From contig JBFMAY010000001.1 in the NCBI GenBank assembly GCA_040755455.1, positions 135,896-199,895 on the forward strand: a stretch of 64,000 bases of DNA, given 5' to 3'. The translations under genes were made by a program, and so were the position numbers. Positions 17,506 through 45,489 of this stretch are shown here, one piece after another. Each line of letters starts with the position of its first letter. Within the stretch, counting starts at the first letter, position 1. The DNA comes from Thermodesulfobacteriota bacterium. Lineage in GTDB: Bacteria; Desulfobacterota; Desulfobulbia; Desulfobulbales; SURF-16. The notes under the pieces were generated by a model that was not told the origin of the DNA, did not search any database, and saw nothing but the letters and a program-made list of their open reading frames with translations.

Positions 17506-22113
<4,608 letters not shown>

Positions 22114-22230
22114 CAGGCAGCGGGAACACAAGAGAGAATCCGTGGCCGGTGGAGGAGCTGCCTAAGCGCGGCCCTCTTCCCGGAGGGGCTTTGCCGGCCA
22201 GGGCATGTTAAACCAAGCAGGGGAGACACC

Positions 22231-22857
22231 ATGCGTATCCTGATCGCTGAAGACGACTTGACGTCGCGGGTCATGCTGGCGGCTGTGTTAAAGAAAGGTG
22301 GCCATGAGGTGGTGGAGACCACCAACGGCACGCAGGCCTGGGAGGCGCTGGGCAAACCCGATGCGCCGCGCCTGGCCATTCTCGACTGGATGATGCCCGG
22401 CCTGGACGGGCTTGATGTCGTGCGCCGAATCCGCTCCCTGCCCTCCCTGCCGCCACCGTACATCATCATCCTGACCGCCAGGGAGGGGAAAACCGATGTC
22501 ATCGCCGGTCTTGAAGCCGGGGCGGACGACTATCTGGCCAAACCCTTTGATCCGGGAGAACTCCTGGCCAGGGTTGCGGTCGGCCGGCGCATGATCCAGC
22601 TGCAGGAAAGATTGACGGACCAGGTGCGGGAACTGCGCGAGGCCGCCCGCCACATCAAAACCCTGCAGGGCATCATCCCTATCTGTTCGTTCTGCAAGAA
22701 GATCCGTGACGACCAGGGTTACTGGGACCAGGTCGAGGCCTATGTCAGCCGGCATTCCGAGGTCCAGTTCAGTCACGGCGTCTGTCCCGAGTGCCTGAAA
22801 AAAAACTACCCCGATTGCTGTGAGGACGACGGTGACGGCGAGGGCGAGCTGGTATGA
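22231..22857 (+). CDS. Response regulator: REC plus a C-terminal Cys/His-rich module
   Basis: REC 'RILIAEDDLTSR...ILDWMMPGLDG...KPF'. C-terminal 'ICSFCKKIRDDQGYWDQVEAYVSRHSEVQFSHGVCPECL'. SD GGGGAGA lies upstream. Confidence 0.9.
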   Translation: MRILIAEDDLTSRVMLAAVLKKGGHEVVETTNGTQAWEALGKPDAPRLAILDWMMPGLDGLDVVRRIRSLPSLPPPYIIILTAREGKTDVIAGLEAGADDYLAKPFDPGELLARVAVGRRMIQLQERLTDQVRELREAARHIKTLQGIIPICSFCKKIRDDQGYWDQVEAYVSRHSEVQFSHGVCPECLKKNYPDCCEDDGDGEGELV

Positions 22858-25800
22858 TGAATAACACCACATCCACCAGACCGGCGGCCAGGGCCGTGGT
22901 GGTCAATGACGACGTGAACCAGCTTAATGTGCTGTCCGGCCTGTTGCGCAGGGAAGGGATCGAGGTGCAACCATGGCAAAGCGCGGAGGCGGCCCTTGCC
23001 GCCATGGACCGGCACCGGCCACCTGATCTCATCGTCACCGACCTCTACATGCCGGTGATTGACGGCTGGCGCTTCTGCCGTCTGCTCCGTTCGCCTGAAT
23101 ACCCATCCTGCAACCACATCCCCATCCTGGTCATTTCAGCCACCTTTGCCGGCGACGAGGCCGCCCGCATCACCAGGGAGCTTGGCGCCAACGCCTTTCT
23201 GCCGGCACCGGTGGACGGCAAACAGTTCATTGAACAGGTGCGGGCGATTCTCGCCGGCCGGTTGTTGCGTCATATCCCCCGGGTGCTGCTTGTTGAGAAC
23301 AGTCCCACCCTGGCGGGCCTCCTGCAGAAGGCCTTTGAGAGCCACGGCTACCTGGCCGATACGGCCAGCACCGCCCGGACGGCGGCCGCAGCGTTCGCCT
23401 GCGCCGCTTACGACGTGGCCGTGCTGGACTATCACCTGCCCGATGCGACGGGGGATTTGCTGCTCGCGGATTTCCGGGCCGGGCGGCCTGATTGCGTCTG
23501 CATCATGATGACCACCGACCCGAGCCCCGAGCTGGCCCTGGCCTGGATGCGGCAGGGCGCGGCCGCCTATCTGCGCAAGCCCTTTGACCCTGCGTCCCTC
23601 ATCGAACTCTGCGCCATGGCCTGCCGGGAAAGAGCCCTGCTGCGGGTGGAAGATCTGCTGGAAAAAAGAAGCCGCGAACTGCGGGAGGCCGAATGCCGCT
23701 ATCGCACTCTCTTTGAGCAAAGTCCAGACGGGGTGGTGATTCTTCATCCGGGAACCGCCCAGCCGCTTGAATTCAACGAACAGGCCTGCCGGCAGCTCGG
23801 CTATTCCCGGGAAGAGTTCGCCCGCCTGCGCCTGTCGGACATCGAGGCGGCGGAAACGGCTGAAGAAAGTCAGGTCCGTATTGCCAACGTCATTCGCGAG
23901 GGGCACGACGATTTCGATACCCTGCAGCGCACCAAACAGGGAGAGATCAGGCACGTCCACGTGACGGCCCAGCTGATTGATGTGGGGGGGCGGCCGGTCT
24001 ACCACTGCATCTGGCGGGACATCACCGAGCGCAAACGGGCGGCGGAAATGCTGCGGGAAAGCGAGACGCAGGTTCGGGCCAAGCTCGACGCCATCCTGTC
24101 CCCGGCGGGAGATATCGGTCTGCTCGATCTGCGCGACATCCTGGATGTCCGGGCGATCCAGGAGCTGATGAACGATTTTTTCAGTCTGACCCATATCGGC
24201 GTCGGCATTATCGATCTGCACGGCAAGGTGGTGGTTGCCACCGGATGGCAGGATATCTGCACCAGATTCCACCGCCGCCACCCTGAAACCTGCCGGAACT
24301 GTATGGAAAGCGACACGGAGCTGTCCGCCGGGGTGCCGGCCGGAACCTTCAAGATCTATAAATGCCGGAACAACATGTGGGATATCGCCACCCCGGTCAT
24401 GGTGGGCGGCAGGCACATGGGCAACCTGTTCCTCGGCCAGTTCTTCTTTGCCGAGGATACCCCGGATCGTGACACCTTCGTGGCCCAGGCAAGGCAATAC
24501 GGGTTCGCTGAGGATGAGTATTTGGCCGCCCTGGAGCGCGTGCCGCGCTGGAGCCGGGAAACCGTCAACACCATCATGAGCTTCTATGCCCGCTTCACCA
24601 CCCTGCTTTCCACCCTGAGCTATAGCAACATCAAGCTGGCCCGGACAGTGGAAGAGCGTAGGGAAGCCGAGGAGGCGCTCAGGCAGAGCGAGGCCCGGCT
24701 GGCGGAATCCAATCAGCTCATGGCCGGGGTGCTGGATCATACCCACATGATGGTGGCATACCTTGACGCGCGGTTCAACTTCATCTGGGTCAATCGCGCC
24801 TATGCCCAAACCTGCGGGCAGGAGCCCGGCTTTTTTCCGGGCAAGAACCACTTCGCCCTCTATCCCCACGAGGAGAATCAGGCCATCTTTCAGCGCGTGG
24901 CGGATACCGGTGAACCGTTTTTCGTCGCCGCCAAACCGTTTGAGTTTCCCGATCAGCCCGAGCGCGGCGTGACCTACTGGGACTGGAGTCTGGTTCCCAC
25001 CAGGGATTCAGCGGGGAAGATCACGGGACTGGTTTTCACCCTGGCCGAGGTCACCAGCCGCATCCGGGCCGAGGAGACCCTCAGGCGGAGCGAGGAACTC
25101 CTGAATGCCACCCAGCGGCTGACCAAGGTGGGCGGCTGGGAGTGGGATCTGGAAAAACAGACCATGTTCTGGACCGAGGAGGTTTACCGCATCCATGGCC
25201 TGAATCCTGGCTGCGTCGCGCCGGGCGCGGCCGAACACGTGGCCAGGAGTCTGGAGTGTTACGATCCCGGGGATCGGCCGGTCATCCTGTCCGCCTTTCA
25301 GCGCTGCGCCGAGGAAGGGCAGGCATACGACCTGGAGTTCCCTTTTACGCCCTGCAGCGGAGGCAGGATCTGGATCCGGACCGGGGCCGAGGCCGTAATG
25401 GAGGCAGGTAAAGTGGTGCGGATAGTCGGCAACATCATGGACATCACCGAGCGCAGGCTGGCCGAGGAGACGCTGCGCAACAGTGAAGAGCGTTACCGTC
25501 TGCTCTTTGCGGCCATGGACTCGGCCTTCGCTCTGCACGAGATCCTGCGTGACGCAAACGGTTCGCCCTGCAACTACCGTTTCCTGGAAGTCAATCCTGC
25601 CTTTGAGAGGTTGACCGGGCTCAAGGCCGGGGAACTGATCGGCAAAACGGTTCTCGATGTCCTGCCGGAAACCGAACATCTCTGGGTTGAGCGTTACGGT
25701 CATGTGGTTGACAGCGGCGAGACCATCCATTTTGAGAATTACAGCCGGAATCTGAGCCGGCATTATGCGGTCACCGCTTACCGTCCCCGGCCAGGGCAGT

Positions 25801-27392
25801 TTGCCGTGATCTTTATGGACATCACCGAGCGGAAGAGGGCCGAGACGGAACGGGAACGGCTGCTCATGGCCATCGAGCAGTCCGGCGAGGTCATCGTCAT
25901 CACCGACCCTGATGGCATCATCCAGTATGTCAATCCGGCCTTTGAGCGGGCAACGGGCTACAGCCGTGACGAAGTCCTGGGCCAGAACCTGCGCCTGTTG
26001 AAGAGCGGCCGACAGGAGGAGGCCTTTTATGAGGAAATGTGGCGGGTGATCTCCGGAGGCGGGAACTGGCGGGGACGTTTCGTCAATAAACGCAAGGACG
26101 GCACGCTTTTTACCGAGGAGGCCAGCATCTCGCCGGTGCGGGACACCCAAGGCCGGATCGTCAATTACGTGGCGGTCAAGCGCGATATCACGGAGCATCT
26201 GCGCATTTCCGAAGAGAATGCCAAGCTGGAGGCCCAGTTTCAGCAGGCCCAGAAGCTTGAGTCCGTCGGCCGTCTGGCCGGCGGCGTGGCCCATGATCTC
26301 AACAACCTGCTCACCCCGATTCTCGGTTACGCAGAGATGCTGCTGGATGATTTCAGCGAGGAAGACGGGCGCAGGGTGGACATGGCAGAGATCGTCAAGG
26401 CGGGCATGCGGGCCCGGGATCTGGTGCGCCAGCTCCTGGTTCTCAGTCGCAAGCAGGTGATGGAGTTGAAATCCATCGATGTCAACAACCTGCTGACCCA
26501 GTTTGACAAGCTGCTGCGCCGCACGATCCGCGAGGATGTCGCCATTGATCTCATTCTGGCCCCGTCGCTGCCGCTCATCAAGGGTGATATCGGGCAGCTG
26601 GAGCAGGTGATCATGAATCTGGCGGTCAACGCCCAGGACGCCATGCCAGACGGTGGCAGGCTGACCATGGAAACGGAGATGGTCGCGGTGGATGAGGTCT
26701 ATGCCGCGGGGAAACCCGGCATGCTCCCCGGCCCTTACGTCAGGTTGACCATCAGCGACACGGGCTGCGGCATGGACGCCGAGACCTGCAGGCACATCTT
26801 CGAGCCGTTTTTCACCACCAAGGAAAAGGACCAGGGTACCGGACTGGGCCTGGCCACCGTCTACGGCATTGTCAAGCAGCACGGCGGCAGTATCTGGGTC
26901 TACAGCGAACCCGGCCACGGCTCAACCTTCAAGATATATTTTCCTGTTGCCGAGGCCCAGGCTGCGGCGGAGGAAGTCGTTGCGGCAAAACCCGCAGACA
27001 GGGATGGCTCCGAAACCATTCTGCTGGTGGAGGACAATGAGCAGGTGCGCAATCTCGCCCGGGCCATTCTCAGCCGGCGGGGCTACTCGCTCCTCATCGC
27101 CCAGGACGGCAGCGATGCGCTGCGCATCCTCGCCCGGCACCATGGGCCGCTGCACCTGATACTGACCGACGTGATCATGCCCGGCATGAGCGGCAAGGAG
27201 CTTTTTGACCGGGTTGCCGCTCTTTACTCTGATATGAAGGTGCTTTACATGTCGGGCTATACCGATAATGTCATTGCCCAGCGCGGCGTGCTTGACCAGG
27301 GCATTCACTTCATCCAGAAACCTTTCACCGTCACGGGCCTGCTGGCCAAGGTGCGGGAAGCGCTGGATCAGGCTTCCCGCAGCGCCAGCTGA
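22854..27392 (+). CDS. Multidomain sensor kinase (REC x2, multiple PAS, PocR-like domain, HisKA, HATPase, C-terminal REC)
   Basis: The start overlaps the upstream stop (ATGA). Two N-terminal REC domains ('LIVTDLYMPVIDG', 'VAVLDYHLPDATG'). H-box 'GGVAHDLNNLLTPILGY'; HATPase 'DTGCGM' and 'GTGLGLATVYGIV'; C-terminal REC 'ILLVEDNEQVR...LILTDVIMPGMSG'. Confidence 0.92.
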   Translation: MMNNTTSTRPAARAVVVNDDVNQLNVLSGLLRREGIEVQPWQSAEAALAAMDRHRPPDLIVTDLYMPVIDGWRFCRLLRSPEYPSCNHIPILVISATFAGDEAARITRELGANAFLPAPVDGKQFIEQVRAILAGRLLRHIPRVLLVENSPTLAGLLQKAFESHGYLADTASTARTAAAAFACAAYDVAVLDYHLPDATGDLLLADFRAGRPDCVCIMMTTDPSPELALAWMRQGAAAYLRKPFDPASLIELCAMACRERALLRVEDLLEKRSRELREAECRYRTLFEQSPDGVVILHPGTAQPLEFNEQACRQLGYSREEFARLRLSDIEAAETAEESQVRIANVIREGHDDFDTLQRTKQGEIRHVHVTAQLIDVGGRPVYHCIWRDITERKRAAEMLRESETQVRAKLDAILSPAGDIGLLDLRDILDVRAIQELMNDFFSLTHIGVGIIDLHGKVVVATGWQDICTRFHRRHPETCRNCMESDTELSAGVPAGTFKIYKCRNNMWDIATPVMVGGRHMGNLFLGQFFFAEDTPDRDTFVAQARQYGFAEDEYLAALERVPRWSRETVNTIMSFYARFTTLLSTLSYSNIKLARTVEERREAEEALRQSEARLAESNQLMAGVLDHTHMMVAYLDARFNFIWVNRAYAQTCGQEPGFFPGKNHFALYPHEENQAIFQRVADTGEPFFVAAKPFEFPDQPERGVTYWDWSLVPTRDSAGKITGLVFTLAEVTSRIRAEETLRRSEELLNATQRLTKVGGWEWDLEKQTMFWTEEVYRIHGLNPGCVAPGAAEHVARSLECYDPGDRPVILSAFQRCAEEGQAYDLEFPFTPCSGGRIWIRTGAEAVMEAGKVVRIVGNIMDITERRLAEETLRNSEERYRLLFAAMDSAFALHEILRDANGSPCNYRFLEVNPAFERLTGLKAGELIGKTVLDVLPETEHLWVERYGHVVDSGETIHFENYSRNLSRHYAVTAYRPRPGQFAVIFMDITERKRAETERERLLMAIEQSGEVIVITDPDGIIQYVNPAFERATGYSRDEVLGQNLRLLKSGRQEEAFYEEMWRVISGGGNWRGRFVNKRKDGTLFTEEASISPVRDTQGRIVNYVAVKRDITEHLRISEENAKLEAQFQQAQKLESVGRLAGGVAHDLNNLLTPILGYAEMLLDDFSEEDGRRVDMAEIVKAGMRARDLVRQLLVLSRKQVMELKSIDVNNLLTQFDKLLRRTIREDVAIDLILAPSLPLIKGDIGQLEQVIMNLAVNAQDAMPDGGRLTMETEMVAVDEVYAAGKPGMLPGPYVRLTISDTGCGMDAETCRHIFEPFFTTKEKDQGTGLGLATVYGIVKQHGGSIWVYSEPGHGSTFKIYFPVAEAQAAAEEVVAAKPADRDGSETILLVEDNEQVRNLARAILSRRGYSLLIAQDGSDALRILARHHGPLHLILTDVIMPGMSGKELFDRVAALYSDMKVLYMSGYTDNVIAQRGVLDQGIHFIQKPFTVTGLLAKVREALDQASRSAS

Positions 27393-31933: not shown

Positions 31934-32090
31934 TTGTCCTTTGTCGAATCGTTATCAGTCCGGCCTAACTTTCTGCCGATCATTGACGGGAGGTTGGGCA
32001 TTTTTTTTATGATCTTCCAGTAAACCAGAGATTTGCATTATTTCACCATCAACGTTGTCATTTTCTTTGCTTAAAAAAACAGGAGCCGGC

Positions 32091-34541
32091 ATGGCACGAC
32101 GGGAAGCTGCCCAGAACATCTTTGTCAGGTTCGACAGGCTGCGGGACAGCCTGAAGCAGATTATTTTCGATCAGGACAAGGCCATTGACGAGGTGGTGGA
32201 TGCCTTCATTCATACGGCCTACAAACCGGTTGCCGCACCGCCCAAGGCGATTTTTACCTTCCTGGGCCCTCCCTCGGTGGGCAAGAAGAGTCTTGCCCGG
32301 GCCCTGACCTCACATCTGGAGGAATATGCGGCTTTCAAGCAGTTTGATATGGAGCAGTTCGCCGATCCTGAGAGCGGGGCCCAGCTGTTTAGCCAGCGGT
32401 TGACCGCTGACGGGGTGCAGGAGGGGGAGTTGGCGGGGTTTATCAGGGAGCACCCGCAGTCCATTATTCTCTTTGATTCCATTGAAAAAGCGGACAATCA
32501 ACTGCAATTGGCCCTGTTCAATCTGCTCACCCGCAACGAGGAGGAGAGCGGCATCAACTGCAGCGGCGTTATCGTGATATTCACCTCCAGCCTCGGCTGC
32601 AGTTTTTTCAAGGATAGAAAGTACCAGGAGGCTTTCAAGGAAAACAAGCTGCGCGCCCAGGCCCTGGTCATGGATGCCCTTTCCAAGGAAAAAAAGGCGG
32701 TCTACGATACGGTGCAGAGCGCCATTGCCCCCAAGCTGCTGGCCGCCATGGCGCGCAATTTCATCATCCTGTTCAATTCCCTGAGCCTGGATACCCTGGT
32801 GCGCATCGGGGGTGAATCCTTGCGCTGTCATTCAGAGCAGTTTGCCCAGCTCAGCAAAATGAAAGTGGAATATCATAATTTTGACCGGATCGCCACCCTG
32901 CTGACCCTGTCATTTTCCCCCAATATCAGCGTTACGAGGCTGAAACAGAAACTGCCCGATCTCTTTCTCGGCAGGATCACGCGATTTGTTCGGGACCAGA
33001 GGAAGTATCCCCAGCATATCGTCTGCAGGCTTTCCAGGCAGGCCGATGCTTTCCTGGAGAAGATATGCCAGGACAAAGAGACATTGCTGGCGCGGCTTTA
33101 CAAGAAAAACGAAACAGTGGATATCACCTGGAAAGAGACCCTGAGCGGTCAGAAACTGACCTGCGCCATCCACAAAGCGGAACTCAAAAGGCTGCCGCCG
33201 GCCAGTGATTTTTTCCGTGAACTGCTGCCGGGGGTGGAATTTTCCACCCTGGGCTTTAAGGATATAGCCGGCAATAAGAGCACCAAGAAGAATCTTAAAC
33301 AGATTGTCAAAATTCTCCGCGAGCCTGAACTGCTGAAAAAATTCAACATCGACATGCCCAAAGGCATGCTGCTTTATGGACCTTCCGGAGTGGGCAAGAC
33401 CATGCTGGCCAAGGCCTTTGCCCGGGAAACGGAAAGGCCGTTTGTCTATGTGTCCAGAAGCGATCTGTTTGATCCCGTCTATATCAGGAACGCCTATCTC
33501 AAGGCCAGGGAGTTTGCCCCGAGCATCGTCTTTCTTGACGGCATTGACGTCAAAGGCCTGATGGAGGGGGTCTATACCTCCATGCCGGATGACCAGCTGA
33601 CCCTGGAGCTGGACGCCCTGTCCGGGGACCCAGAGGATTCCGTTTTCACCATCGCCACCGCCCAGATCAAGGCCGATGTCAGTCCCCGGGTCATTGCCCC
33701 CAACAGAATCGATATCTTTGTCGAGGTGCCCGAGCTTGACCGGGACGCCAGGCGCTTTTTCATCGAAAAGATTCTGGAGAAACCCAACGACGGCAAAATC
33801 AACGTGGAGCGGGTGATCCGCTATATCTCAGGCATGAGCGGCTATGATCTGCAGCGCATCGGCAAAGAGGCGTCCCTCTATGCCATCCGCAATGATCTGG
33901 ACCGCATCACCGAAGATATCCTCATCGAGGAGATCAATATCATCAAGTATGGCTATAAGCTGGAGAAGAAGCGCATCAGAAATCTTGAGCAGGATCTGAA
34001 AATCACCGCCTACCACGAGGCCGGCCACGCGGTGCTGTCGCATCTGCTGCTGCCGGATATCAAGATTGAGCAGGTGACCATCGCGCCGCGGCTCAAATCC
34101 ATGGGATTCATCTCCTACAGCATGGAGGATTTTCCCGGCAACATCTCCAGGGATGAGGTCTTTGACAACATCTGCGTGCTGCTTGGCGGGCGCACGGCCA
34201 GCATCAGGAAATTCGGCAGCAAGGGGATCGACACCGGCGCGGCAAACGACCTGGAGGTCGCCACCCATCAGGCCTATGCCGCGGTCGCCAGTCTGGGCAT
34301 GGATGAGGAGATCGGCTATGTGCACACCGATACCCTTTCCCAGAATGTCAGCAAGCAGATGTTTCTCACCAAGGTTGAGACGCGGGTCAGCCATTGGATG
34401 CGCGAGGCGAGCGCCAAGGCGGAGACGCTGGTGGAAAAGCACTGGGATAAGGTGGAGCAGCTGGCCTCGATCCTCATCCGTCAGGAAATTGTCGACGGCG
34501 TCGAACTGGAAAAGATCATGAAGGGGCTCAAGGACTCCTAG
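32091..34541 (+). CDS. Soluble FtsH-like protein: Clp/Hsp100 D2-like AAA module + FtsH-type AAA module + M41 peptidase domain
   Basis: AGGAG lies 6 nt before ATG 32091. N-terminal module: 'FLGPPSVGKKSLARAL', 'IILFDSIEKA'. FtsH-like module: 'LLYGPSGVGKTMLAKAFARE', 'IVFLDGID'. M41 motifs: 'AYHEAGHAV', 'LLGGR', 'TGAANDLEVAT'. I saw no hydrophobic TM segment. Confidence 0.85.
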   Translation: MARREAAQNIFVRFDRLRDSLKQIIFDQDKAIDEVVDAFIHTAYKPVAAPPKAIFTFLGPPSVGKKSLARALTSHLEEYAAFKQFDMEQFADPESGAQLFSQRLTADGVQEGELAGFIREHPQSIILFDSIEKADNQLQLALFNLLTRNEEESGINCSGVIVIFTSSLGCSFFKDRKYQEAFKENKLRAQALVMDALSKEKKAVYDTVQSAIAPKLLAAMARNFIILFNSLSLDTLVRIGGESLRCHSEQFAQLSKMKVEYHNFDRIATLLTLSFSPNISVTRLKQKLPDLFLGRITRFVRDQRKYPQHIVCRLSRQADAFLEKICQDKETLLARLYKKNETVDITWKETLSGQKLTCAIHKAELKRLPPASDFFRELLPGVEFSTLGFKDIAGNKSTKKNLKQIVKILREPELLKKFNIDMPKGMLLYGPSGVGKTMLAKAFARETERPFVYVSRSDLFDPVYIRNAYLKAREFAPSIVFLDGIDVKGLMEGVYTSMPDDQLTLELDALSGDPEDSVFTIATAQIKADVSPRVIAPNRIDIFVEVPELDRDARRFFIEKILEKPNDGKINVERVIRYISGMSGYDLQRIGKEASLYAIRNDLDRITEDILIEEINIIKYGYKLEKKRIRNLEQDLKITAYHEAGHAVLSHLLLPDIKIEQVTIAPRLKSMGFISYSMEDFPGNISRDEVFDNICVLLGGRTASIRKFGSKGIDTGAANDLEVATHQAYAAVASLGMDEEIGYVHTDTLSQNVSKQMFLTKVETRVSHWMREASAKAETLVEKHWDKVEQLASILIRQEIVDGVELEKIMKGLKDS

Positions 34542-36832: not shown

Positions 36833-37204
36833 TGGTAGTCCACAATAATCAGCATCCTGTCTTTGCCATCAATCCTGCAGCAATTTTGAGCGGGTAGCAA
36901 AATAACCGGCAGTGGCGGCAATTGCCATATTTTATTGTAAACAGATTATTTTTCTCAATTGGGGACATTATGGCAGTTGGCCGGCGGCTGATCAAGAAAA
37001 ATACCATGAGTGGGAAAATGGATGCTCTGCGCAAATGCACCAGGCAGGGAGGTCAAATTGTACGGGGGCACATGGTTGATGATATAAGTTGATAATCAAT
37101 TTCGGGAAATTATATAATAAGGCAATGAACGGACGGCCCGTTATCAGTCTTGCCTCATGAGCCCGCTCGGATTGTTTCCCCACCAACAATGGAGATGTTT
37201 CCTC

Positions 37205-38872
37205 ATGAAAAAAATGTCGCTCAGGTTGAAGATATCCTGCATCATGATTTTCATCGCAGTTGTGACAGCCTGCTTCTTCGCTGTTTTTATGTATCAGCGC
37301 AACATCAATAAAGCGTATGATGATGCCCGGGGCTACGCCGATGATCTGCTGGCCAGAACCGTGCAGATGTTCATGGTTTCCACCACCAGATTTCACGATG
37401 ACTTTCAGCGGACGCAAGGGAATCCTGAGGAAAGAAAAAAGATCCTGAATGATTGGAACCGGACGATCTTTGCCGTGGATCAGGCCGTTATTCATGACCA
37501 TGGGGCGGACAAGCCGAGAGTGAGGTTGATTGGCGATAAGCAGCTTTTTCAATATGCGCCCCTGGGCGGCGACAATACGAAAATACAGATACCATTTGAA
37601 ACGGAAGCGGGGAAATCCCTGTTGCATGGCGAGAGTAAAGTCGAAAAGATTGAGGACGGTTTTCTGCGGGTGGCCATCCCCCTATGGAGTGATGTCTTCA
37701 TCGGATGTGCGGAATGTCATTTTTCCGAGGTTGAAAATGACCAGGCCGATATGAACCGGCATATCCTGCTGGGGACCTTGAATGCCTATATGCCACTGCA
37801 GCAGATGGTGGCCCAGGCAAGAATTGACGCGGTGGTCATCATTGCGCTGTTCATACTGGCCGTGTTCATGCTGATCGGTGTTGTCTATTGGTTGGTCAGC
37901 CTCTCAGTGGTGAAGCCGTTTGTGGTGGAAATCGACAGCCTCAATGGCAGTGCGGAGCATGTGTCCCTTTCTTCCCGGCAACTCTATGCCGCAAGTCTTG
38001 CCATGGCCGAGGGTGCTTCGGAACAGGCGGCATCCATCGAGGAGACGTCGGCATCCCTGGAGGAAATGTCCTCCATGACCAGGCGCAACGCCGATAATGC
38101 CCATCAGGCTGACAGTTTCACCCGGGAGGCAAGCCAACTGGTGACAACGGCCAATGATTCCATGGGCAAACTGAGTGGCTCCATGGAGGAAATTTCCAAG
38201 GCCAGCGATGAAACATCGAAAATCATTAAAACCATCGATGAGATCGCCTTCCAGACCAATCTGCTGGCGCTCAATGCGGCGGTGGAGGCGGCCCGTGCCG
38301 GGGAGGCCGGCGCAGGGTTTGCCGTGGTTGCCGATGAGGTGCGGAACCTTGCTTTACGGGCCGCCAATGCAGCAAGGGATACCGCAGGGCTCATTGAGGC
38401 GACGGTGAGCAAGGTAAAGGACGGGAAAAATCTTGTCGGAGCAACAAACAGTTCTTTTGCCGAGGTGTCCACCAGTGTCGGCAAGGTCAGCCAGCTCGTG
38501 ACTGAAATCGCTTCAGCCTCCACTGAGCAGGCGAAAGGCATTGATCAGATCAACCGCGCAGTGACGGAAATGGACAAGGTTATCCAGCAGAATGCCGCCA
38601 ATGCCGAACAATGCGCCGCGACTTCGGAACAGATGGAGCTGCAGTCCGGCAAGATGAAGGGGGTGGTCCGGAGTTTGCTGAGGTTAATCAAGGGGGATGA
38701 CAGCGGCAGCGATGCGGTTGCCCCGGCCCAGGTCGTAAGACCTGCGCCGAAAAAATCTGCTGCCGCGCCCGCCCAGGTCGAGCAAAAACGGCAGGAATCC
38801 ATTCCTGGACCCAAAAAACTTGAATTAAAGAAAGAGATTAAGGCAAATGATAATGATTTTGAGGAGTTTTAG
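37205..38872 (+). CDS. Methyl-accepting chemotaxis protein with a CxxCH-containing periplasmic sensor domain
   Basis: Two TM segments flank a ~190-aa domain carrying 'CAECH' (nt 37706-37720). The MCP signalling hairpin is '[37 protein letters not shown]'. Confidence 0.9.
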
Positions 38873-38888: not shown

Positions 38889-38920
38889 GGACGGCGACGC
38901 CGGAAGCGCCATCGCCGTCC
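38889..38920. terminator. Hairpin between convergent genes (possible bidirectional terminator)
   Basis: GGACGGCGA and TCGCCGTCC form a perfect 9-bp stem with a 14-nt loop. There is no clear U-tract. Confidence 0.3.
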
Positions 38921-38928
38921 GTGGCGAA

Positions 38929-41292
38929 CTACATGGAGCTGATCTGCAGATCGATCAGGTCATCCATTCTGTCCAGGTAAATATCCAGGGGCTGCTGCCT
39001 GAGGGCGGCGAGTCCGACCCGGAGATCCAGGGCCTGGATATCATGGGCGAGAGAGGGCGAGCCGACTATCTTCTCCGCCTCGTCATAGCGGTTCAGCTTG
39101 ATCAAGGCCTTGGCGCAATTGATGGCCGCTTCCGCGCTGCTGCCGGCAATGGGGTTAAGGATCTCGTATGCCTTTTCAGGCCAGCTGTTGGCCAGCAGTA
39201 TCCGGCCCGTATGTTCCATGGTGGAGTCGTTCCGGGGCAGCAGGTCAAGCAGGGGCTCCGCCTGGTGCCGAAAGCCGAGTTTCAGGTAGAAATTCAATAG
39301 GCTGAGGAAGTCGGTCATTTCTCCCATGAGTTTCTGCGGCAGGGAGTCCTTGAGCACCATGTAATAGAGATTTTCGTTCTGTTTGCGCAGACCGTCCAGA
39401 TCATTGAAGCGATAGATGTTCTGCGGCGGGTTATCCGGCAGACCATCCATATGGTCAATGATGACGGGCTCCATCACCTGATGGAGAAAAACCTGGAACA
39501 TGAGGGTCCGGCCGGCGAGTTCACTGCGGCCGTAATCAGCCGGGAAGCTTACCGGAAACTGGCTGACCCTGCCTCCCTTCATGCCCTGCAGACCGGCCTC
39601 GAAATCAGGGAGGAGTTTGCCGCTGCCCAGCACGGCATCCTGGTAATAGGCCTCGGTGGCCGGCACAACCTGGCCGTCCAGAATACCCTTGCAGTCGTAT
39701 ATAACCTTGCAGCCGTGGGCTGCGGTGCCGCGGCGTTTGCAGCGAAAGCCGGTAAACGGTCCGGCCAGGAAGCTTGTTACCTCCGGATCATGGGGAAATT
39801 GAGCCTTGAGCCGGGTCATGCATTGATGGGCGGCATGAAATTCCTCCAGGCACAGATAAATCTGCGTCAGCATGATGAGGGCCTCGGGCCGGCAGGAAAG
39901 GGCCGCGAAGTTTGCGGTGATGAAGCCCGCCACCTCGAAAAGGTTGCTGCCGGTGGCAACGTTTTCCTGGAAATCCTGACGATTCAGGCGCCACAGCATG
40001 CTCATTCGCCGGATTTCCTCCTCGCTCATGGCGTCGGTGGCGAAATCGCGGCATATGCTCAGGTAAGCTGGTTTGGTCACGGCCAGCGGTTTGATGCCAT
40101 GGGCCTCATGGTCGTCAAGGATGGGGATGCCGAAGAAGAGGTGCAGCTGCTGGGAAATGGAATTGCCGCTGACGGGCACCCTGTTGGCCTTGACAAAATC
40201 CAGGGTTTTCTGGGCATGGGCAAATGACTCCCCTGGCAGGCCGAAGAGGGTGAAGAGTTCAACGTTGATGCCGGCCTGCTGGACTTTGCCGATGACCCCG
40301 GCGAGTTTTTCCGGGTTGAGTCCCTTATTGATTCTGGTCAGCACCTCGTGGTCGGCTGATTCGAGTCCGAAGGCAATGGTGTGGGCCCCCGCTTTTTTGA
40401 GCAGCTCGAGCAGCTCGTCATCAATGAGATTGTATCTGGTCTGGCACCAGAAGGTGATGGCCGGGCATTGGGTAATGATGCTGCGCAGCAGCTCAACAAG
40501 CCGCCCGCGGGAAAAGGCGAAGTTGGGATCGGCAAACCAGAAGTCGCGGATGCCCCTGGCCTGCAGATGTTTGATTTCGGCCGTGACCCGGCCGATGGAA
40601 TGAAACCGTACCTTTTTATTGCTGGCGCGGGTGGTGTAACAGAAGGTGCAGGGCGAGGTGCAGCCCCGGGAGGTGAGGAGAATAACCCGGCTCTTGCCGG
40701 CCGTGTCGATGATCCCTTCCAGGTAGGGGGAGGGCAGGCTGTCAAGGTCCTCCACCACCTCCGCCGGTGGGGTGTCAACCGCCTTTCCCTGATCCAGGTA
40801 GCAGATGCCCGGCACCTCGGCAAGGGGCCTGCCCTTGTCCAGGGCCCGGCCAAGGGCAGGCAGTACTCCTTCACCTTCCCCCCGGCACAGGATGTCCACG
40901 TTCTTCATCTGGAGCAGGGCCGCGCCGGGCATGAAGGTGATCTGGGGGCCACCCAGGATTACCAGAATTTCCGGGCGGAGCCTTTTGGCATAACTGGCCC
41001 AGACCAGCACCCTGTTGATGTTTTCGTCATAAACCGAAAAACCGAGCACATCCGGTTTTTCGGCGGCAAGCATATCGCGGAAAAGTTTCGGCGGCAGAGG
41101 TCTGTCCTTGTAATCGCCGAGAATGGTGCCGCTGTAGCCGTGCTTCCTGAGGGCGGCCAGAGCGTAGGCCTGGGAGATGGGAATGGTATCCGGGGAGTCG
41201 ATGGTGGCCCATTCATTGACATGTATGAAGAGAAAGTTTGTCCTGTCTGCCTGTCGGTTTTGCTTCATGACGTGGCTGCTCCTGCTCATCAT
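38929..41292 (-). CDS. B12-binding radical SAM protein fused to an FKBP-like PPIase segment and a TPR-like tail
   Basis: The N-terminal part is B12-binding-like ('DVLGFSVYDEN...VILGGPQITF'). The radical SAM cluster is 'RGCTSPCTFCYT' (CxxxCxxC). The FKBP/trigger-factor-like part is 'LGSGKLLPDFEAGLQGMKGGRVSQFPVSFPADYG...FQVFLHQV'. The start could be ATG 41268, which has AGGAG upstream. Confidence 0.85.
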   Translation of the reverse strand: MMSRSSHVMKQNRQADRTNFLFIHVNEWATIDSPDTIPISQAYALAALRKHGYSGTILGDYKDRPLPPKLFRDMLAAEKPDVLGFSVYDENINRVLVWASYAKRLRPEILVILGGPQITFMPGAALLQMKNVDILCRGEGEGVLPALGRALDKGRPLAEVPGICYLDQGKAVDTPPAEVVEDLDSLPSPYLEGIIDTAGKSRVILLTSRGCTSPCTFCYTTRASNKKVRFHSIGRVTAEIKHLQARGIRDFWFADPNFAFSRGRLVELLRSIITQCPAITFWCQTRYNLIDDELLELLKKAGAHTIAFGLESADHEVLTRINKGLNPEKLAGVIGKVQQAGINVELFTLFGLPGESFAHAQKTLDFVKANRVPVSGNSISQQLHLFFGIPILDDHEAHGIKPLAVTKPAYLSICRDFATDAMSEEEIRRMSMLWRLNRQDFQENVATGSNLFEVAGFITANFAALSCRPEALIMLTQIYLCLEEFHAAHQCMTRLKAQFPHDPEVTSFLAGPFTGFRCKRRGTAAHGCKVIYDCKGILDGQVVPATEAYYQDAVLGSGKLLPDFEAGLQGMKGGRVSQFPVSFPADYGRSELAGRTLMFQVFLHQVMEPVIIDHMDGLPDNPPQNIYRFNDLDGLRKQNENLYYMVLKDSLPQKLMGEMTDFLSLLNFYLKLGFRHQAEPLLDLLPRNDSTMEHTGRILLANSWPEKAYEILNPIAGSSAEAAINCAKALIKLNRYDEAEKIVGSPSLAHDIQALDLRVGLAALRQQPLDIYLDRMDDLIDLQISSM

Positions 41293-41684: not shown

Positions 41685-42653
41685 ATGACGCCATACAGAC
41701 CTCTGACCATAATCAGTCATCCGCATTACCTGGAGCATGATACAGGAGGCGGAGACCATCCGGAAAGCCCTGAACGTCTACGATTCATTGATAGGCAGCT
41801 CAAGGACAGCCCCCTTTCCCCCTGCATCACTAAAAAAACCGCCAGAAGAGCGCTGCGGGAGGATGTCCTCGTCTATCACACGGAGGCCTATCTGTACCGC
41901 CTGGAAGAAACCGCCCTGAAAGGACAGACCTATATTGACCACCGGGACAATCAGATCTGTTTCGAGTCCTTTGAGGCGATTCTGCTTGCGGCCGGGGGCT
42001 GCCTGACCGGCATCGATCTGCTGGAAGAGGGCAGCGATCTGGTTTTCTGCTGCATACGGCCTCCGGGCCACCATGCGGAACGGGCCATGGCCCTGGGTTT
42101 CTGTTTCGTCAATAATGCGGTTGTCGCCGCCAGGTACTGGCAGAAACGGTATGGACGACAAAAAATTGCCGTCATCGACTGGGACGCCCATCACGGCAAC
42201 GGCATCCAGGATGCCTTTGAGGAAGACCCTGATGTTTTTTACATCAGCATCCATGAGCATCCCACTTTCAGCTTTCCGGGCACCGGCTATGCCGAGGAAA
42301 AAGGCCTGGGGGCAGGGGCCGGCACCACCCTGAATATTCCCCTGCCGCCCGGGGCCGATGACGCCATGTTTCTCCGCGCTATGAGCAAATTCGTGGAGCC
42401 GGCCCTGGACGTCTTCCGGCCGGAGAGGATTATCGTTTCCGCCGGATTTGACGGGCATGTGCTGGATGACATGTCAGGACTGTCCTACAGCACGGAGCTT
42501 TACGGCGTGATCGGCGAGCGGATGGCGGCACTGACCGACAGGTATTGCCAGGGGAAAAGCCTGTCGATCCTGGAAGGCGGCTATCATCTGGAAGCCCTGG
42601 CCGCCAGCGTTGAACGTTACCTCCTTGGCCTGGCCAAGTGTAAGCCGTTGTAA
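41685..42653 (+). CDS. Histone deacetylase-family (AcuC/HDAC-like) deacetylase
   Basis: 'IRPPGHHA', 'VIDWDAHHGNGIQ' and 'LEGGY' are the arginase/deacetylase-fold catalytic motifs. Confidence 0.9.
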   Translation: MTPYRPLTIISHPHYLEHDTGGGDHPESPERLRFIDRQLKDSPLSPCITKKTARRALREDVLVYHTEAYLYRLEETALKGQTYIDHRDNQICFESFEAILLAAGGCLTGIDLLEEGSDLVFCCIRPPGHHAERAMALGFCFVNNAVVAARYWQKRYGRQKIAVIDWDAHHGNGIQDAFEEDPDVFYISIHEHPTFSFPGTGYAEEKGLGAGAGTTLNIPLPPGADDAMFLRAMSKFVEPALDVFRPERIIVSAGFDGHVLDDMSGLSYSTELYGVIGERMAALTDRYCQGKSLSILEGGYHLEALAASVERYLLGLAKCKPL

Positions 42654-42686
42654 AAAAATAACTGTAACATCGCCATTACGGTGAAC

Positions 42687-42744
42687 GGCATAACGGGCCG
42701 TAACGAAATGGTCAGAGATGTAATGGTTATTGCAACGGCCCCTA
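42687..42744 (+). repeat. Copy B of the ~58-nt intergenic hairpin repeat
   Basis: GGCATAACGGGCCGTAACGAAATGGTCAG...GGTTATTGCAACGGCCCCT. The arms GGGCCGTAACGAAAT and ATTGCAACGGCCC are imperfectly complementary. Confidence 0.7.
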
Positions 42745-42787
42745 ACCCGATATAAAAAAACAATATCGTCGTCCCGATGTCAGAGAC

Positions 42788-42845
42788 GGCATAAGGGGCC
42801 GTAACGAAATGCTCAAAAAAGAAGAGGTTATTTCGCAACGGCCCT
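42788..42845 (+). repeat. Copy C of the ~58-nt intergenic hairpin repeat
   Basis: GGCATAAGGGGCCGTAACGAAATGCTCA...GGTTATTTCGCAACGGCCCT forms a 14-bp stem with a 2-nt internal mismatch. It ends 5 nt before the AAAGGAG SD of the next gene. Confidence 0.7.
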
Positions 42846-42862
42846 AAATAAAGGAGTGGAAA

Positions 42863-43540
42863 ATGTATATAGCACGCCATATGACCTCACCGGCGCTGAC
42901 TGTTTCCCCGGACACCCTGCTGCCGGATGTCCGTGAAATCATGAATACCCGCAGGTTCAGGCACCTGCCGGTGGTCGATGAGCAGCAGCGGTTGATCGGT
43001 ATGATCACCGACCGGGATCTGCGTTCCGCCTATCCCTCCTCGCTGCTGCCCGAGGACAAGCGGCTGGCTATCCTGGAGAAGGTGGCCAAGACCGAGGTCA
43101 GGTCCATCATGTCCCAGAAGATCATTGCCATTACCCCGCTTTCCACCCTGGATGATGCCCTCTATTTCCTGTCCAAGGAAAAAATCGGCATGCTGCCGGT
43201 GGTTGATGAGGAACAGCATGTTATCGGCGTCTTTTCCGTCCATGACCTCATGATGGCCTATAAAAAACTCTATGGCATCGGCGATCGCGGTTCCGCACTG
43301 ATTGCCGTGGAGGATGACGGCAAGCCGAAACCTCTGACCAGAATCGTCCGGGTGCTGGAGGAGCGGGAAATCCGCTTTTCCCGCCTGACCAGGGTCCATG
43401 GCGAGGCCGGGGAAAAGAAGATCATCTATCTGCGCGTCCATACCTTCAACCTCAATGTGGTGCATAAGGCGCTGAAAGAAATCGGCATGACCATGATGGT
43501 TCCCGATCTGCAGGAAATTCTGCCAAAGCCCCATGCCTGA
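42863..43540 (+). CDS. CBS-pair + ACT-like domain protein (AcuB-like)
   Basis: Two CBS motifs ('HLPVVDEQQRLIGMITDRDL', 'MLPVVDEEQHVIGVFSVHDL') are followed by a ~70-aa ACT-like C-terminus. SD AAAGGAG lies upstream. Confidence 0.85.
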   Translation: MYIARHMTSPALTVSPDTLLPDVREIMNTRRFRHLPVVDEQQRLIGMITDRDLRSAYPSSLLPEDKRLAILEKVAKTEVRSIMSQKIIAITPLSTLDDALYFLSKEKIGMLPVVDEEQHVIGVFSVHDLMMAYKKLYGIGDRGSALIAVEDDGKPKPLTRIVRVLEEREIRFSRLTRVHGEAGEKKIIYLRVHTFNLNVVHKALKEIGMTMMVPDLQEILPKPHA

Positions 43541-43611
43541 TCGAGCCGGTCTGAGCTTTTTCTCGCAATACCGGTAACTACCGCAGCAACCTGGGGGGAG
43601 GTGGGTTCATC

Positions 43612-45489
43612 ATGAACGCAGAAAATGCAGGCTGTGATCCTGACTGGCAGAACCGTTACAGCGACATGATTGCCACCGCCCGAAAGGCGGTCTCCCATGT
43701 GAAGCACGGGCAGCGGGTTTTTATCGGCACCGGCTGCGGCGAACCGGTTGAACTGGTCAAGGCGTTGACCGACCGTGCCGGCGAGCTGGCGGATGTGGAG
43801 ATTATCCACTTGATCACCAAAGGTGAGGCCCCCTATGCCTGCAAACGTCTGGCCGATTGTTTTTCGGTCAACAGTTTCTTCATCGGCGCCAATGTGCGCG
43901 ATCATATTCAGGAAGGGCTTGGGCATTACACCCCCATGCTGCTGTCCGATATCCCCAGGATCTTCAGTTCCGGCCAGATTCCCCTGGATGTGGTCCTGCT
44001 CCAGGTGACACCGCCGGACATGCGGGGCAAGGTCAGCCTGGGCGTGTCCGTTGATATCGTAAAAAGCGCGGCGGAAAACGGCTCGCTGGTCATCGCCCAG
44101 GTCAATCCCCTGATGCCCAGGACCCTGGGGGATTCCTTCCTTGATATCTATGATCTCGACATCCTGGTTCCCATTGCCACCCCGCTCATCGAGCGGCAAG
44201 CCGGTCCGCCCAACGAGGTGACCAGAAAGATCGGCGGCTATATCGCCTCGCTGGTGGAGGATGGCTCTACGGTGGAATTCGGCATCGGCACGATTCCCCA
44301 GGCCCTGGTGGAATTTCTCAAGGACAAGAAGGACCTGGGCATCCATACGGAAATGCTGAGCGAAGGTGTCATCGAGCTGATTGAAGCGGGCGCGGTCACC
44401 GGCAGAAGGAAAACCCTGGATGCCGGCAGGATCGTCACCAGCTTCTGCATGGGCACCAAAAAGCTCTATGACTATGTGGACAACAACCCTCTCTTCTGTT
44501 TCCGTCCCACCGAATATGTCAATGATCCCTTCATCATCGGCAGGCAGCATAAGATGGTGGCCATCAATATGGCCCTGGAGGTTGACCTCACCGGCCAGGT
44601 CTGCGCCGATTCCTTGGGCTCAAAGTTCTACTCGGGCATCGGCGGCCAAGTTGATTTCAACCGTGGCGCGGCACGGTCAAAGGGGGGCAAGGCCATCATC
44701 GCCATGCCGTCCACGGCGCTTGATGACACGGTGTCCCGCATCGTGACCCGGCTCGCCACCGGCGGCGGGGTTGTTACTTCCCGCGGGGAAGTGCATTATG
44801 TCATCACGGAATACGGCATTGCCTATCTGCATGGCAAAAGCGTGCAGGAGCGCTGCCTGGCCCTGATCAGCATCGCCCATCCCCATTTTCGGGAGCAGCT
44901 GCTGAAGGAGGCCATTGAGGCAAAATACATCCGCCAGGAAATGTCTGATGTGGAAGGTCGTTTCATGGTGGCCTCCCAGGAAATGAAGACATCGGTGCTG
45001 CTTGATGACGGCACCCAGATCAATTTCCGCCACGTTCATCCCACCGATCTGCCGCGCATGCGCGATCTGCTCTACGCCCTGTCCCAGGAAACGATCTATT
45101 ACCGGTTCATGACCCGCTCCCAACGTTTTGCCCATAGTCAGATCCAGAACTTCGTCTATGTGGATCACCGCAAGGATGTGGCCATCGTGGCCACGGTGCC
45201 CGAGGCCCACGGGGAGGATATCATTGCCATCGGCCGTTATTATCTTGATGAACGGACCAACCGGGCGGAGGTGGCCTTTGTGGTCCACGATCAGTGGCAG
45301 AACCGGCATATCGGCACGTTTCTCTTCAAATATCTGGCGGCCCTGGCCAAGCGCAGCGGCATTGCCGGGTTTACCGCGGAGGTGCTGCTGGAAAACAGAA
45401 GGATGCAGGCCATATTCAACAGTTCCTCTTTGAAGGTGGAAAGCCAGAGGGAAGAGGACGTCTACCGGTTCAAGATCGAATTCGATTAG
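43612..45489 (+). CDS. Acetyl-CoA hydrolase/transferase-family domain fused to a Pat-type GNAT acetyltransferase domain
   Basis: The N-terminal ~430 aa are colinear with CoA-transferase family I ('GQRVFIGTGCGEP', 'EMLSEGVIEL', 'SGIGGQVDF'). The C-terminal GNAT has 'YYRFMTR' and 'VVHDQWQNRHIGTFLFKYL'. SD GGGGGGAGGTGG lies upstream. Confidence 0.85.
   Translation: MNAENAGCDPDWQNRYSDMIATARKAVSHVKHGQRVFIGTGCGEPVELVKALTDRAGELADVEIIHLITKGEAPYACKRLADCFSVNSFFIGANVRDHIQEGLGHYTPMLLSDIPRIFSSGQIPLDVVLLQVTPPDMRGKVSLGVSVDIVKSAAENGSLVIAQVNPLMPRTLGDSFLDIYDLDILVPIATPLIERQAGPPNEVTRKIGGYIASLVEDGSTVEFGIGTIPQALVEFLKDKKDLGIHTEMLSEGVIELIEAGAVTGRRKTLDAGRIVTSFCMGTKKLYDYVDNNPLFCFRPTEYVNDPFIIGRQHKMVAINMALEVDLTGQVCADSLGSKFYSGIGGQVDFNRGAARSKGGKAIIAMPSTALDDTVSRIVTRLATGGGVVTSRGEVHYVITEYGIAYLHGKSVQERCLALISIAHPHFREQLLKEAIEAKYIRQEMSDVEGRFMVASQEMKTSVLLDDGTQINFRHVHPTDLPRMRDLLYALSQETIYYRFMTRSQRFAHSQIQNFVYVDHRKDVAIVATVPEAHGEDIIAIGRYYLDERTNRAEVAFVVHDQWQNRHIGTFLFKYLAALAKRSGIAGFTAEVLLENRRMQAIFNSSSLKVESQREEDVYRFKIEFD

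Follow-up and report, generated by a model that had tools for sequence, protein, structure and literature searches.

The gene described here lies in a stretch of 64,000 nucleotides from a Thermodesulfobacteriota bacterium (assembly GCA_040755455.1, contig JBFMAY010000001.1, positions 135,896 to 199,895 of the forward strand; hereafter the window, numbered from its first letter) and almost certainly encodes a cobalamin (B12) radical S-adenosylmethionine (SAM) enzyme fused to an FKBP domain and to tetratricopeptide repeats (TPRs). An initial annotation, made from the letters and a list of open reading frames (ORFs), had proposed this fusion for the ORF 38929..41292 (-), 787 aa, which is present as stated. 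All three Pfam families named in that annotation (PF02310, PF04055 and PF00254) were matched above cutoff. The protein is read here as a polypeptide-modifying B12 radical SAM enzyme that carries its own client-holding module, a reading that as a whole stands at about an even chance; within it, a client from the dissimilatory sulfite reduction (Dsr) system is the more weakly inferred part. Residues are numbered on the 787-aa ORF throughout, even though a start at Met9 is favoured.

In the catalytic half, a B12-binding Rossmann-like domain was placed at residues 35-147 (40852..41190 (-); PF02310, 58.1 bits vs cutoff 32.1) and was modelled as strands alternating with helices, with a predicted local distance difference test score (pLDDT) >90 in the full-length AlphaFold2 (AF2) model. 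The radical SAM core follows at residues 207-367 (40192..40674 (-); PF04055, 78.6 bits vs cutoff 29.5), and in its translation CTSPCTFC (40639..40662 (-)) is read as the CxxxCxxC motif (C211, C215, C218) that in radical SAM cores holds the SAM-binding [4Fe-4S] cluster. The three cysteines were invariant across 33 homologues (alignment A1), and the N-terminal B12 fold and the cluster motif were annotated correctly from the start. A conserved cap (residues 368-447, 39952..40191 (-)), with invariant or near-invariant columns in A1 (GNSISQQLHLFFG ... PAYLSICRDF.T..MS..EI ... WRLNR), is common to the fused enzyme and to unfused 427-aa paralogues; tblastn matches of unfused homologues stop at about residue 447. 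For the N-terminal half Foldseek returned the cobalamin radical SAM enzymes CysS, TokK, TsrM, AprD4, MgmA and OxsB (E 1e-21 to 1e-16), and matches of the radical SAM core to class-B structures had E 1e-21 to 1e-17. CysS (9n1b), TokK (7kdx), TsrM (6wtf) and MgmA/QCMT (9ccb) share the N-terminal B12 domain and the CxxxCxxC core over 440-650 columns (E 1e-21 to 4e-17), but with just 17-21% identity to the fused enzyme, and they are without FKBP or TPR module. The catalytic half is, from family matches and predicted structure, a class B (cobalamin-dependent) radical SAM enzyme. No NCBIfam equivalog claims it, the closest models (HpnJ, ApyD, PhpK and BchE) scoring far below their cutoffs.

The FKBP domain, of the trigger-factor type and peptidyl-prolyl isomerase (PPIase)-like, was delimited to residues 513-612 (39457..39756 (-)) using Pfam, a PDB profile search, AF2 and Foldseek. 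Pfam FKBP_C (PF00254) matched residues 524-603 (37.8 bits vs cutoff 21.1, E 2.4e-9), and the NCBIfam trigger factor model TIGR00115 scored 61.6 bits vs a cutoff of 180.2, aligned only over its PPIase positions 145-246. In the PDB profile search with residues 508-625 (27 homologues), the PPIase domain of Escherichia coli trigger factor (1l1p) was matched with E 4e-14, SlyD with 0.014 and classical FKBPs also only with about 0.01. The AF2 model of the segment alone had a pLDDT of 92.6 and was matched by Foldseek to trigger factor PPIase domains with template modelling (TM) scores of 0.73-0.79 (best 0.79, to 1t11) and a root mean square deviation (rmsd) of 1.3-1.8 Å over ~100 residues; the next matches were SlyD, Mip and FKBP13/14/51, with TM 0.55-0.63 for SlyD, Mip and FKBP13. 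By sequence and model the segment is assigned the FKBP fold (a five-stranded antiparallel sheet around a short helix) in its trigger-factor subtype, so that a segment first annotated as FKBP-like has also been predicted as such by structure. The trigger-factor/SlyD pattern noticed initially was borne out, trigger factor being closest in both sequence and structure; the quoted peptide had been located to within ~4 residues, its actual span being residues 529-606 and not ~525-607. The pocket residues of E. coli trigger factor in the mutational literature are F168, F177, F185, I195, F198, Y221 and F233; the equivalents of F198, Y221 and F233 (here F564, Y587 and F599) were kept in 119-121 of the 121 fused proteins. 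For Cys534, a role common to all members, as ligand or catalytic residue of the pocket, was considered and rejected, since Ser or Ile is found there in divergent fused clades.

The full-length AF2 model (pLDDT 92.5, predicted TM score 0.88) is ordered as B12 domain, radical SAM barrel, cap 368-447, helical hairpins 448-512, FKBP domain 513-612 and ~12 helices at 617-786. TPR-like helices ahead of the FKBP domain extend over residues 424-509, with a Pfam TPR_14 match at 469-510 just under its cutoff (22.5 bits vs 23.5); the hairpins of residues 448-512 correspond to 39757..39951 (-) (AF2 helices 451-509, pLDDT >90). The C-terminal TPR-like solenoid (residues 613-787, 38932..39456 (-); ~12 AF2 helices, pLDDT >90) was matched at 678-745 by ANAPC3 (34.5 bits vs cutoff 27.2) and TPR_19 (33.3 vs 25). 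The TPR-like helical C-terminus of the initial annotation is present, but it is not merely a trailing tail: because TPR-like helices also precede the FKBP domain, the latter is an insert in a helical array and not a spacer ahead of the tail, and in the model the C-terminal 340 residues form a TPR-like helical array with an inserted FKBP domain. For the C-terminal half Foldseek returned trigger factor (E 1.6e-7), whose PPIase head domain is likewise inserted between helical chaperone-like segments; the fused enzyme differs in being without the ribosome-binding N-domain and the C-domain signature of trigger factor, and in having its FKBP domain joined to an enzyme. The same search returned FKBP52, FKBP51, FKBP38 and AIP/XAP2 (E ~1e-4, ranging from about 5e-5 to 2e-4, over ~300 columns), in which an FKBP domain is followed by TPR repeats and the TPR clamps the C-terminal peptide of a partner. 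These immunophilins are eukaryotic, are only 10-14% identical, superpose poorly as a whole (rmsd 13-15 Å) and have no counterpart here to their Hsp90 context, and the likeness is probably convergent.

A search of 5.8 billion proteins yielded >120 clusters of fused proteins of ~775 aa with 48-100% identity and identical Pfam content, nearly all from Desulfobacterota metagenome-assembled genomes (MAGs) and labelled at source just 'radical SAM protein', and a genome scan, for which one genome per species was taken, yielded 60+ loci carrying the fusion. The initial annotation had allowed for an assembly or frameshift artefact absent from related genomes; with the architecture found in so many clusters and loci, and with a confident full-length model, this was ruled out. 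Full-length fused copies occurred in Desulfobulbia, Desulfobacterales, Desulfomonilaceae and Syntrophia-type genomes, and shorter matches stopping at about residue 447 in Thermodesulfobacteria, Desulfofervidaceae, Chloroflexota/Dehalococcoidia, Planctomycetota and Gemmatimonadaceae. When the catalytic halves were placed on a neighbour-joining tree, the fused enzymes formed one clade, sister to the unfused ones, a topology in line with a single fusion event. In an exhaustive profile search of 1.84 billion representative proteins, the complete linker and FKBP module (residues 448-640) was confined to the fused family (about a dozen representatives or fragments), and the next-ranked matches were ordinary trigger factors, via their PPIase domain; this distribution suggests that the FKBP domain is specific to the fused enzyme family and was most likely recruited once from trigger factor. 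Two apparently stand-alone FKBP-TPR proteins (P0258 and P0303) were discarded as truncated gene calls starting at an internal Met of the full-length protein. Both fused and unfused copies were present in three MAGs (loci are cited by L number): CAZNJP01 (L045 + L072), JAGGTC01 (L052 + L076) and DTXE01 (L047/L048 + L077); the two forms are therefore paralogous lineages, possibly with different clients. In DTXE01 there are apparently two fused fragments. Literature searches turned up no description of a B12 radical SAM::FKBP fusion, nor of any B12 radical SAM enzyme linked to dsr genes, which together with the bare database label agrees with the initial remark that no such fusion was known to have been described: sequences that join a chaperone-type substrate module to a cobalamin radical SAM enzyme are public, but neither a paper nor a curated family was found that names the combination.

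For gene neighbourhoods, the ORFs of 81 fetched loci and of the window flanks were clustered, 86 loci and the window were later tabulated, and recurrent neighbours were named by Pfam and NCBIfam as YcaO, PrmA-family methyltransferase, DsrC, DsrA/B, DsrD and DsrN. Linkage to dsrAB, dsrC or dsrN was seen in four arrangements in four clades, namely two of the four fused subclades and two unfused clades. The first of these is the Desulfobacterales subclade (~54% core identity, about 28 loci), with a co-directional array of a CxxCxxCC protein, c4 (115 aa), the fusion, a PrmA-family methyltransferase, a TPR protein, a 381-391-aa protein and dsrA-dsrB-dsrD-dsrN; YcaO adjoins this array, which was confirmed by independent gene calls. 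The conserved co-directional cluster upstream of dsrABDN (L086:8973-22319, L028:8654-19240, and L036) holds c1 (214 aa), c4 (115 aa), c9 (123 aa, CPFCG...CxCG) and c15 (381-391 aa), none with a Pfam family above cutoff (c1 with just a sub-threshold CxxCxxCC/PF03692 match), besides DUF6955, the PrmA-family methyltransferase and YcaO. In the second, a subclade of 47-48% core identity (5 loci), YcaO precedes the fusion and the pair is convergent with a canonical DsrC gene (...CK[IV]AGLPKPTGC[IV]), which in two of the five loci is preceded by a second YcaO. This second YcaO (513-516 aa; L074:4537-6503 (-) and L055:2557-4739 (-)) is apparently co-transcribed with DsrC, convergent to the YcaO-fusion pair; DsrC might serve either as substrate of YcaO or as the sulfur donor for thioamidation. 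The neighbouring YcaO most resembles the type that thioamidates the McrA glycine, with a below-cutoff score of 127 bits. In the Desulfomonile subclade and at one Planctomycetes locus, an old yellow enzyme (OYE)-type flavoprotein stands in place of dsr partners; this FMN/FAD oxidoreductase of ~660-700 aa (PF00724 + Pyr_redox_2) comes after the fused enzyme at most loci of the Desulfomonilaceae clade (L061, L062, L064 and L065; gene positions in L061-L065 about 13.3-15.6 kb) and, in the Planctomycetes MAG, the unfused enzyme and TPR pair (L085:10755-12740). Within the Desulfobulbia subclade to which the window belongs (about 30 loci with 58-88% core identity) the fusion is a conserved single gene without cluster partners. 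One Desulfobulbaceae MAG has an atypical DsrC-family protein 9 kb from the fused gene (L013:20547-20912 (-)), which ends ...PKLEGIHFVSVDGKRYMLEECC, without the canonical PKPTGCV arm.

The unfused 427-aa paralogues are 36-44% identical to the radical SAM half through residue 447 and are always paired with a downstream, translationally coupled TPR protein (L078, L082-L085 and others), with a 4-nt stop/start overlap in many loci. The partner genes (L078:9141-10889, L082:11281-13053, L085:8741-10501, L066:5892-7229 and 11 more; alignment A4) encode an N-terminal domain of ~280 aa, which has no Pfam or PDB sequence match and carries four invariant cysteines (C216, C232, C257 and C260; PC-x15-PC ... 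CxxC), followed by canonical TPRs. The constant coupling supports a TPR scaffold as integral to the enzyme's mode of work. The partner (c6) was rejected as a trans equivalent of the FKBP-TPR half: it is a separate protein with no FKBP region, and hhalign gave only a generic TPR match to the tail of the fusion (probability 36%). At two Chloroflexota/Dehalococcoidia loci the unfused enzyme ends a dsrA-dsrB-dsrN-dsrC array and the TPR partner follows; at further loci with the unfused enzyme, dsrO/P-like genes are 5 kb away, together with dsrA-dsrB-(70-81-aa ORF without a Pfam hit)-dsrN-dsrL-like genes.

In the preferred reading, the N-terminal 447 residues would do the chemistry by means of the B12 domain, the [4Fe-4S]/SAM core and a family-specific cap; the chemistry would most likely be methyl transfer to an unactivated carbon. 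The C-terminal 340 residues would be a built-in client-holding module, in which FKBP and TPR elements would hold on to a client segment or terminus that is flexible and probably contains proline, and would present it to the active site. Polypeptide-acting radical SAM enzymes normally recognise their substrates via recognition elements of the kind found in the maturation of peptides that are made on the ribosome and then modified post-translationally (RiPPs), or via separate partners; the FKBP-TPR module would fill in cis the role that in other members falls to RiPP recognition elements or separate TPR partners. A client-holding device for a polypeptide is proposed because an FKBP domain with conserved central pocket aromatics is permanently attached within a TPR solenoid, in the domain order of FKBP-TPR co-chaperones. 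The suggestion, already made in the initial annotation, that the enzyme modifies a peptide or protein while holding it is indirectly supported by the sister-clade YcaO, PrmA-family methyltransferase and DsrC. The label 'polypeptide-modifying' is held with moderate confidence, and we lean towards a polypeptide client.

A protein-level modification tied to dissimilatory sulfite reduction is suggested by the recurrence of YcaO, the PrmA-family methyltransferase, DsrC and dsrABDN near the enzyme in sister clades and near its paralogues. 'Dsr-related' is held with low-to-moderate confidence, and a client within the Dsr system (DsrC or DsrAB) is proposed tentatively, as a doubtful but specific candidate. 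Such a client might be acted on jointly with YcaO and the PrmA-family methyltransferase, by analogy with the decoration of methyl-coenzyme M reductase. A more far-reaching version, which we regard as unlikely, is that in many Desulfobacterota, and in Chloroflexota-type lineages with dsr genes, DsrAB or DsrC bears post-translational modifications not seen before. In this version a comparable toolkit would install them, with YcaO for the thioamide, a PrmA-family methyltransferase for N-methylation and the B12 radical SAM enzyme for C-methylation, and the FKBP/TPR module would hold the DsrC arm (...LPKPTGCV) or a nascent Dsr segment in the active site; the C-terminal arm of DsrC is presumably flexible and proline-rich. 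The known system most like the sister-clade grouping of YcaO, PrmA and B12 radical SAM is the modification toolkit of methyl-coenzyme M reductase, which can serve as an analogy and a lead. A YcaO thioamidase and MgmA/QCMT, a B12 radical SAM methylase, are both part of it (PMC11796369, PMC13469106, PMC7058361); MgmA/QCMT methylates a glutamine of methyl-coenzyme M reductase, so that members of the class are able to act on a residue within a large respiratory enzyme (PMC11796369, PMC13469106). The resemblance of the fused enzyme to MgmA/QCMT is structural only (9ccb); the hosts here are Desulfobacterota, and the cutoff of the glutamine C-methyltransferase equivalog (TIGR04014) was not reached (86 bits vs 360).

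Several observations weigh against the preferred reading. Chemistry other than methylation is also carried out by class B radical SAM enzymes, with the closest NCBIfam models far below cutoff here, and TPR domains can dock partners without binding a substrate. Across the 121 fused proteins trigger factor F168 is replaced by Cys, F177 by Val/Ile and F185 by Gln; because of these three replacements PPIase activity is uncertain, and with F198, Y221 and F233 kept, sequence comparison makes peptide binding by the domain plausible. Other subclades have an OYE-type flavoprotein and an enoyl-CoA hydratase as neighbours, of which the OYE does not fit the dsr story. No dsr, YcaO or PrmA partner was found within 10 kb in the ~30 loci of the own subclade, and tblastn of the 64-kb window with YcaO, the PrmA-like methyltransferase, c1, c4, c9, c15 and DsrA/B/C/N returned none of them. 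The dsr linkage of the unfused paralogues is not simply transferable to the fused enzyme, since both forms coexist in three MAGs.

The alternative that survives best, although it is improbable, is a cofactor or small-molecule enzyme whose core would act on a tetrapyrrole (siroheme or sirohydrochlorin) or a lipid, with the FKBP-TPR half docking DsrAB or a carrier. The best NCBIfam similarities include BchE (108 vs cutoff 481), HpnJ (120 vs 578) and HpnR (65 vs 650), which belong to tetrapyrroles or hopanoids, DsrN is a recurrent neighbour of the siroheme amidase type, and the OYE-type flavoprotein and enoyl-CoA hydratase of the other subclades would fit as well; but these model scores are reported as 4-6 fold under their cutoffs, a trigger-factor-type PPIase domain whose central pocket aromatics are so consistently retained points to polypeptide binding, and YcaO, the PrmA-family methyltransferase and DsrC are protein-level partners. 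Still less probable is a RiPP maturase, in which a small precursor peptide encoded elsewhere would be modified and the FKBP-TPR half would replace the RiPP recognition element. In its favour are a partial resemblance to ApyD and the RiPP C-methyltransferases of TIGR03975, a YcaO neighbour in two subclades and the small conserved ORFs c4 and c9 flanking the Desulfobacterales fusion; ApyD (NF050148) however scored 115 vs a cutoff of 750 and TIGR03975 108 bits vs 282, and c4 and c9 are conserved over their entire length, unlike precursors with a leader and a variable core. This variant of the peptide-holding idea is the weaker one because these models are far below cutoff, because no precursor-like ORF, protease or exporter/transporter was found near the fused gene in the window, and because the enzyme is a single conserved gene in ~30 own-clade genomes, spread over many genera and not part of a patchy biosynthetic cluster. 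A modifier of ribosomal or translation proteins, acting with YcaO and the PrmA-like methyltransferase and carrying its trigger-factor-type FKBP domain for work near the ribosome, is very improbable: the neighbouring methyltransferase is in the L11-methyltransferase family and E. coli YcaO is reported to thioamidate ribosomal protein uL16 (PMC13063428), but the PrmA-like protein scored 117.9 vs the equivalog cutoff of 183 and matches the methyltransferase half alone, without the L11-binding half, the ribosome-binding N-domain of trigger factor is absent as the TIGR00115 match is limited to positions 145-246, thrS-infC near L058 and L074 was ruled out as a ribosomal link, being plain adjacency to a housekeeping operon, and the taxa seen are those of sulfate/sulfite reducers and not bacteria in general.

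If the client-holding reading is true, a catalytic core permanently fused to a chaperone-type prolyl isomerase and a TPR clamp would be a new mode of substrate capture and an engineering scaffold. The fused family is widespread in sulfate-reducer-type bacteria and wholly uncharacterised. If the client were indeed DsrC or DsrAB, unknown modifications would be present on the central enzyme system of microbial sulfate respiration and would have been missed if the model organisms with solved Dsr structures lack the gene, as they appear to.

Within the window, the most likely expressed gene is 38929..41268 (-), 779 aa plus stop, the frame being open upstream to ATG 41292. From the sequence, Met9 (ATG 41268) is probably the real start, because a Shine-Dalgarno-like AGGAG (41279..41283 (-), read directly from the sequence) lies 10 nt upstream of it, the N-termini of homologues align there and the NCBI protein MEW6288351.1, 100% identical to the fused enzyme, has 779 aa; no motif comparable to AGGAG was read upstream of ATG 41292. 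The gene stands alone, as initially annotated, between a convergent methyl-accepting chemotaxis protein (MCP) gene on its 3' side (37157-38872 (+)) and a divergent HDAC-family gene on its 5' side (41685-42653 (+)), and its GC content is that of its neighbourhood. No Rfam element, cobalamin riboswitch included, was found near it at E <= 1, and scans for promoters and terminators around it were at background level, with none convincing. In the 56 nt that separate the MCP gene from the convergent radical SAM gene there is a perfect 9-bp inverted repeat (ggacggcga ... tcgccgtcc, 38889-38920) with a 14-nt loop, which may be a bidirectional terminator hairpin without a T-run.

Beyond the HDAC-family gene lie a CBS protein and an acetyl-CoA hydrolase/transferase::GNAT fusion, so that the divergent trio at 41685-45489 (+) consists of the HDAC-family deacetylase (41685-42653), a tandem-CBS protein (42863-43540) and a 625-aa acetyl-CoA hydrolase/transferase with a C-terminal GNAT domain (43612-45489). 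The trio resembles an AcuC/AcuB/AcuA-like protein acetylation switch, in which the acetyl-CoA-transferase::GNAT fusion is unusual; synteny of this flank is limited to close relatives (10-12). At 32055-34541 (+) the window encodes an 828-aa protein with an AAA_2/sigma-54-activator-like module at residues 63-211, an AAA module at 438-559 and a C-terminal M41 peptidase, an FtsH-like protease carrying an additional N-terminal ATPase module. The GC content of blocks 10001-14000 and 18001-26000 is 0.61-0.64 vs 0.51-0.59 elsewhere in the window, and the latter block overlaps a 1512-aa ORF at 22854-27392.

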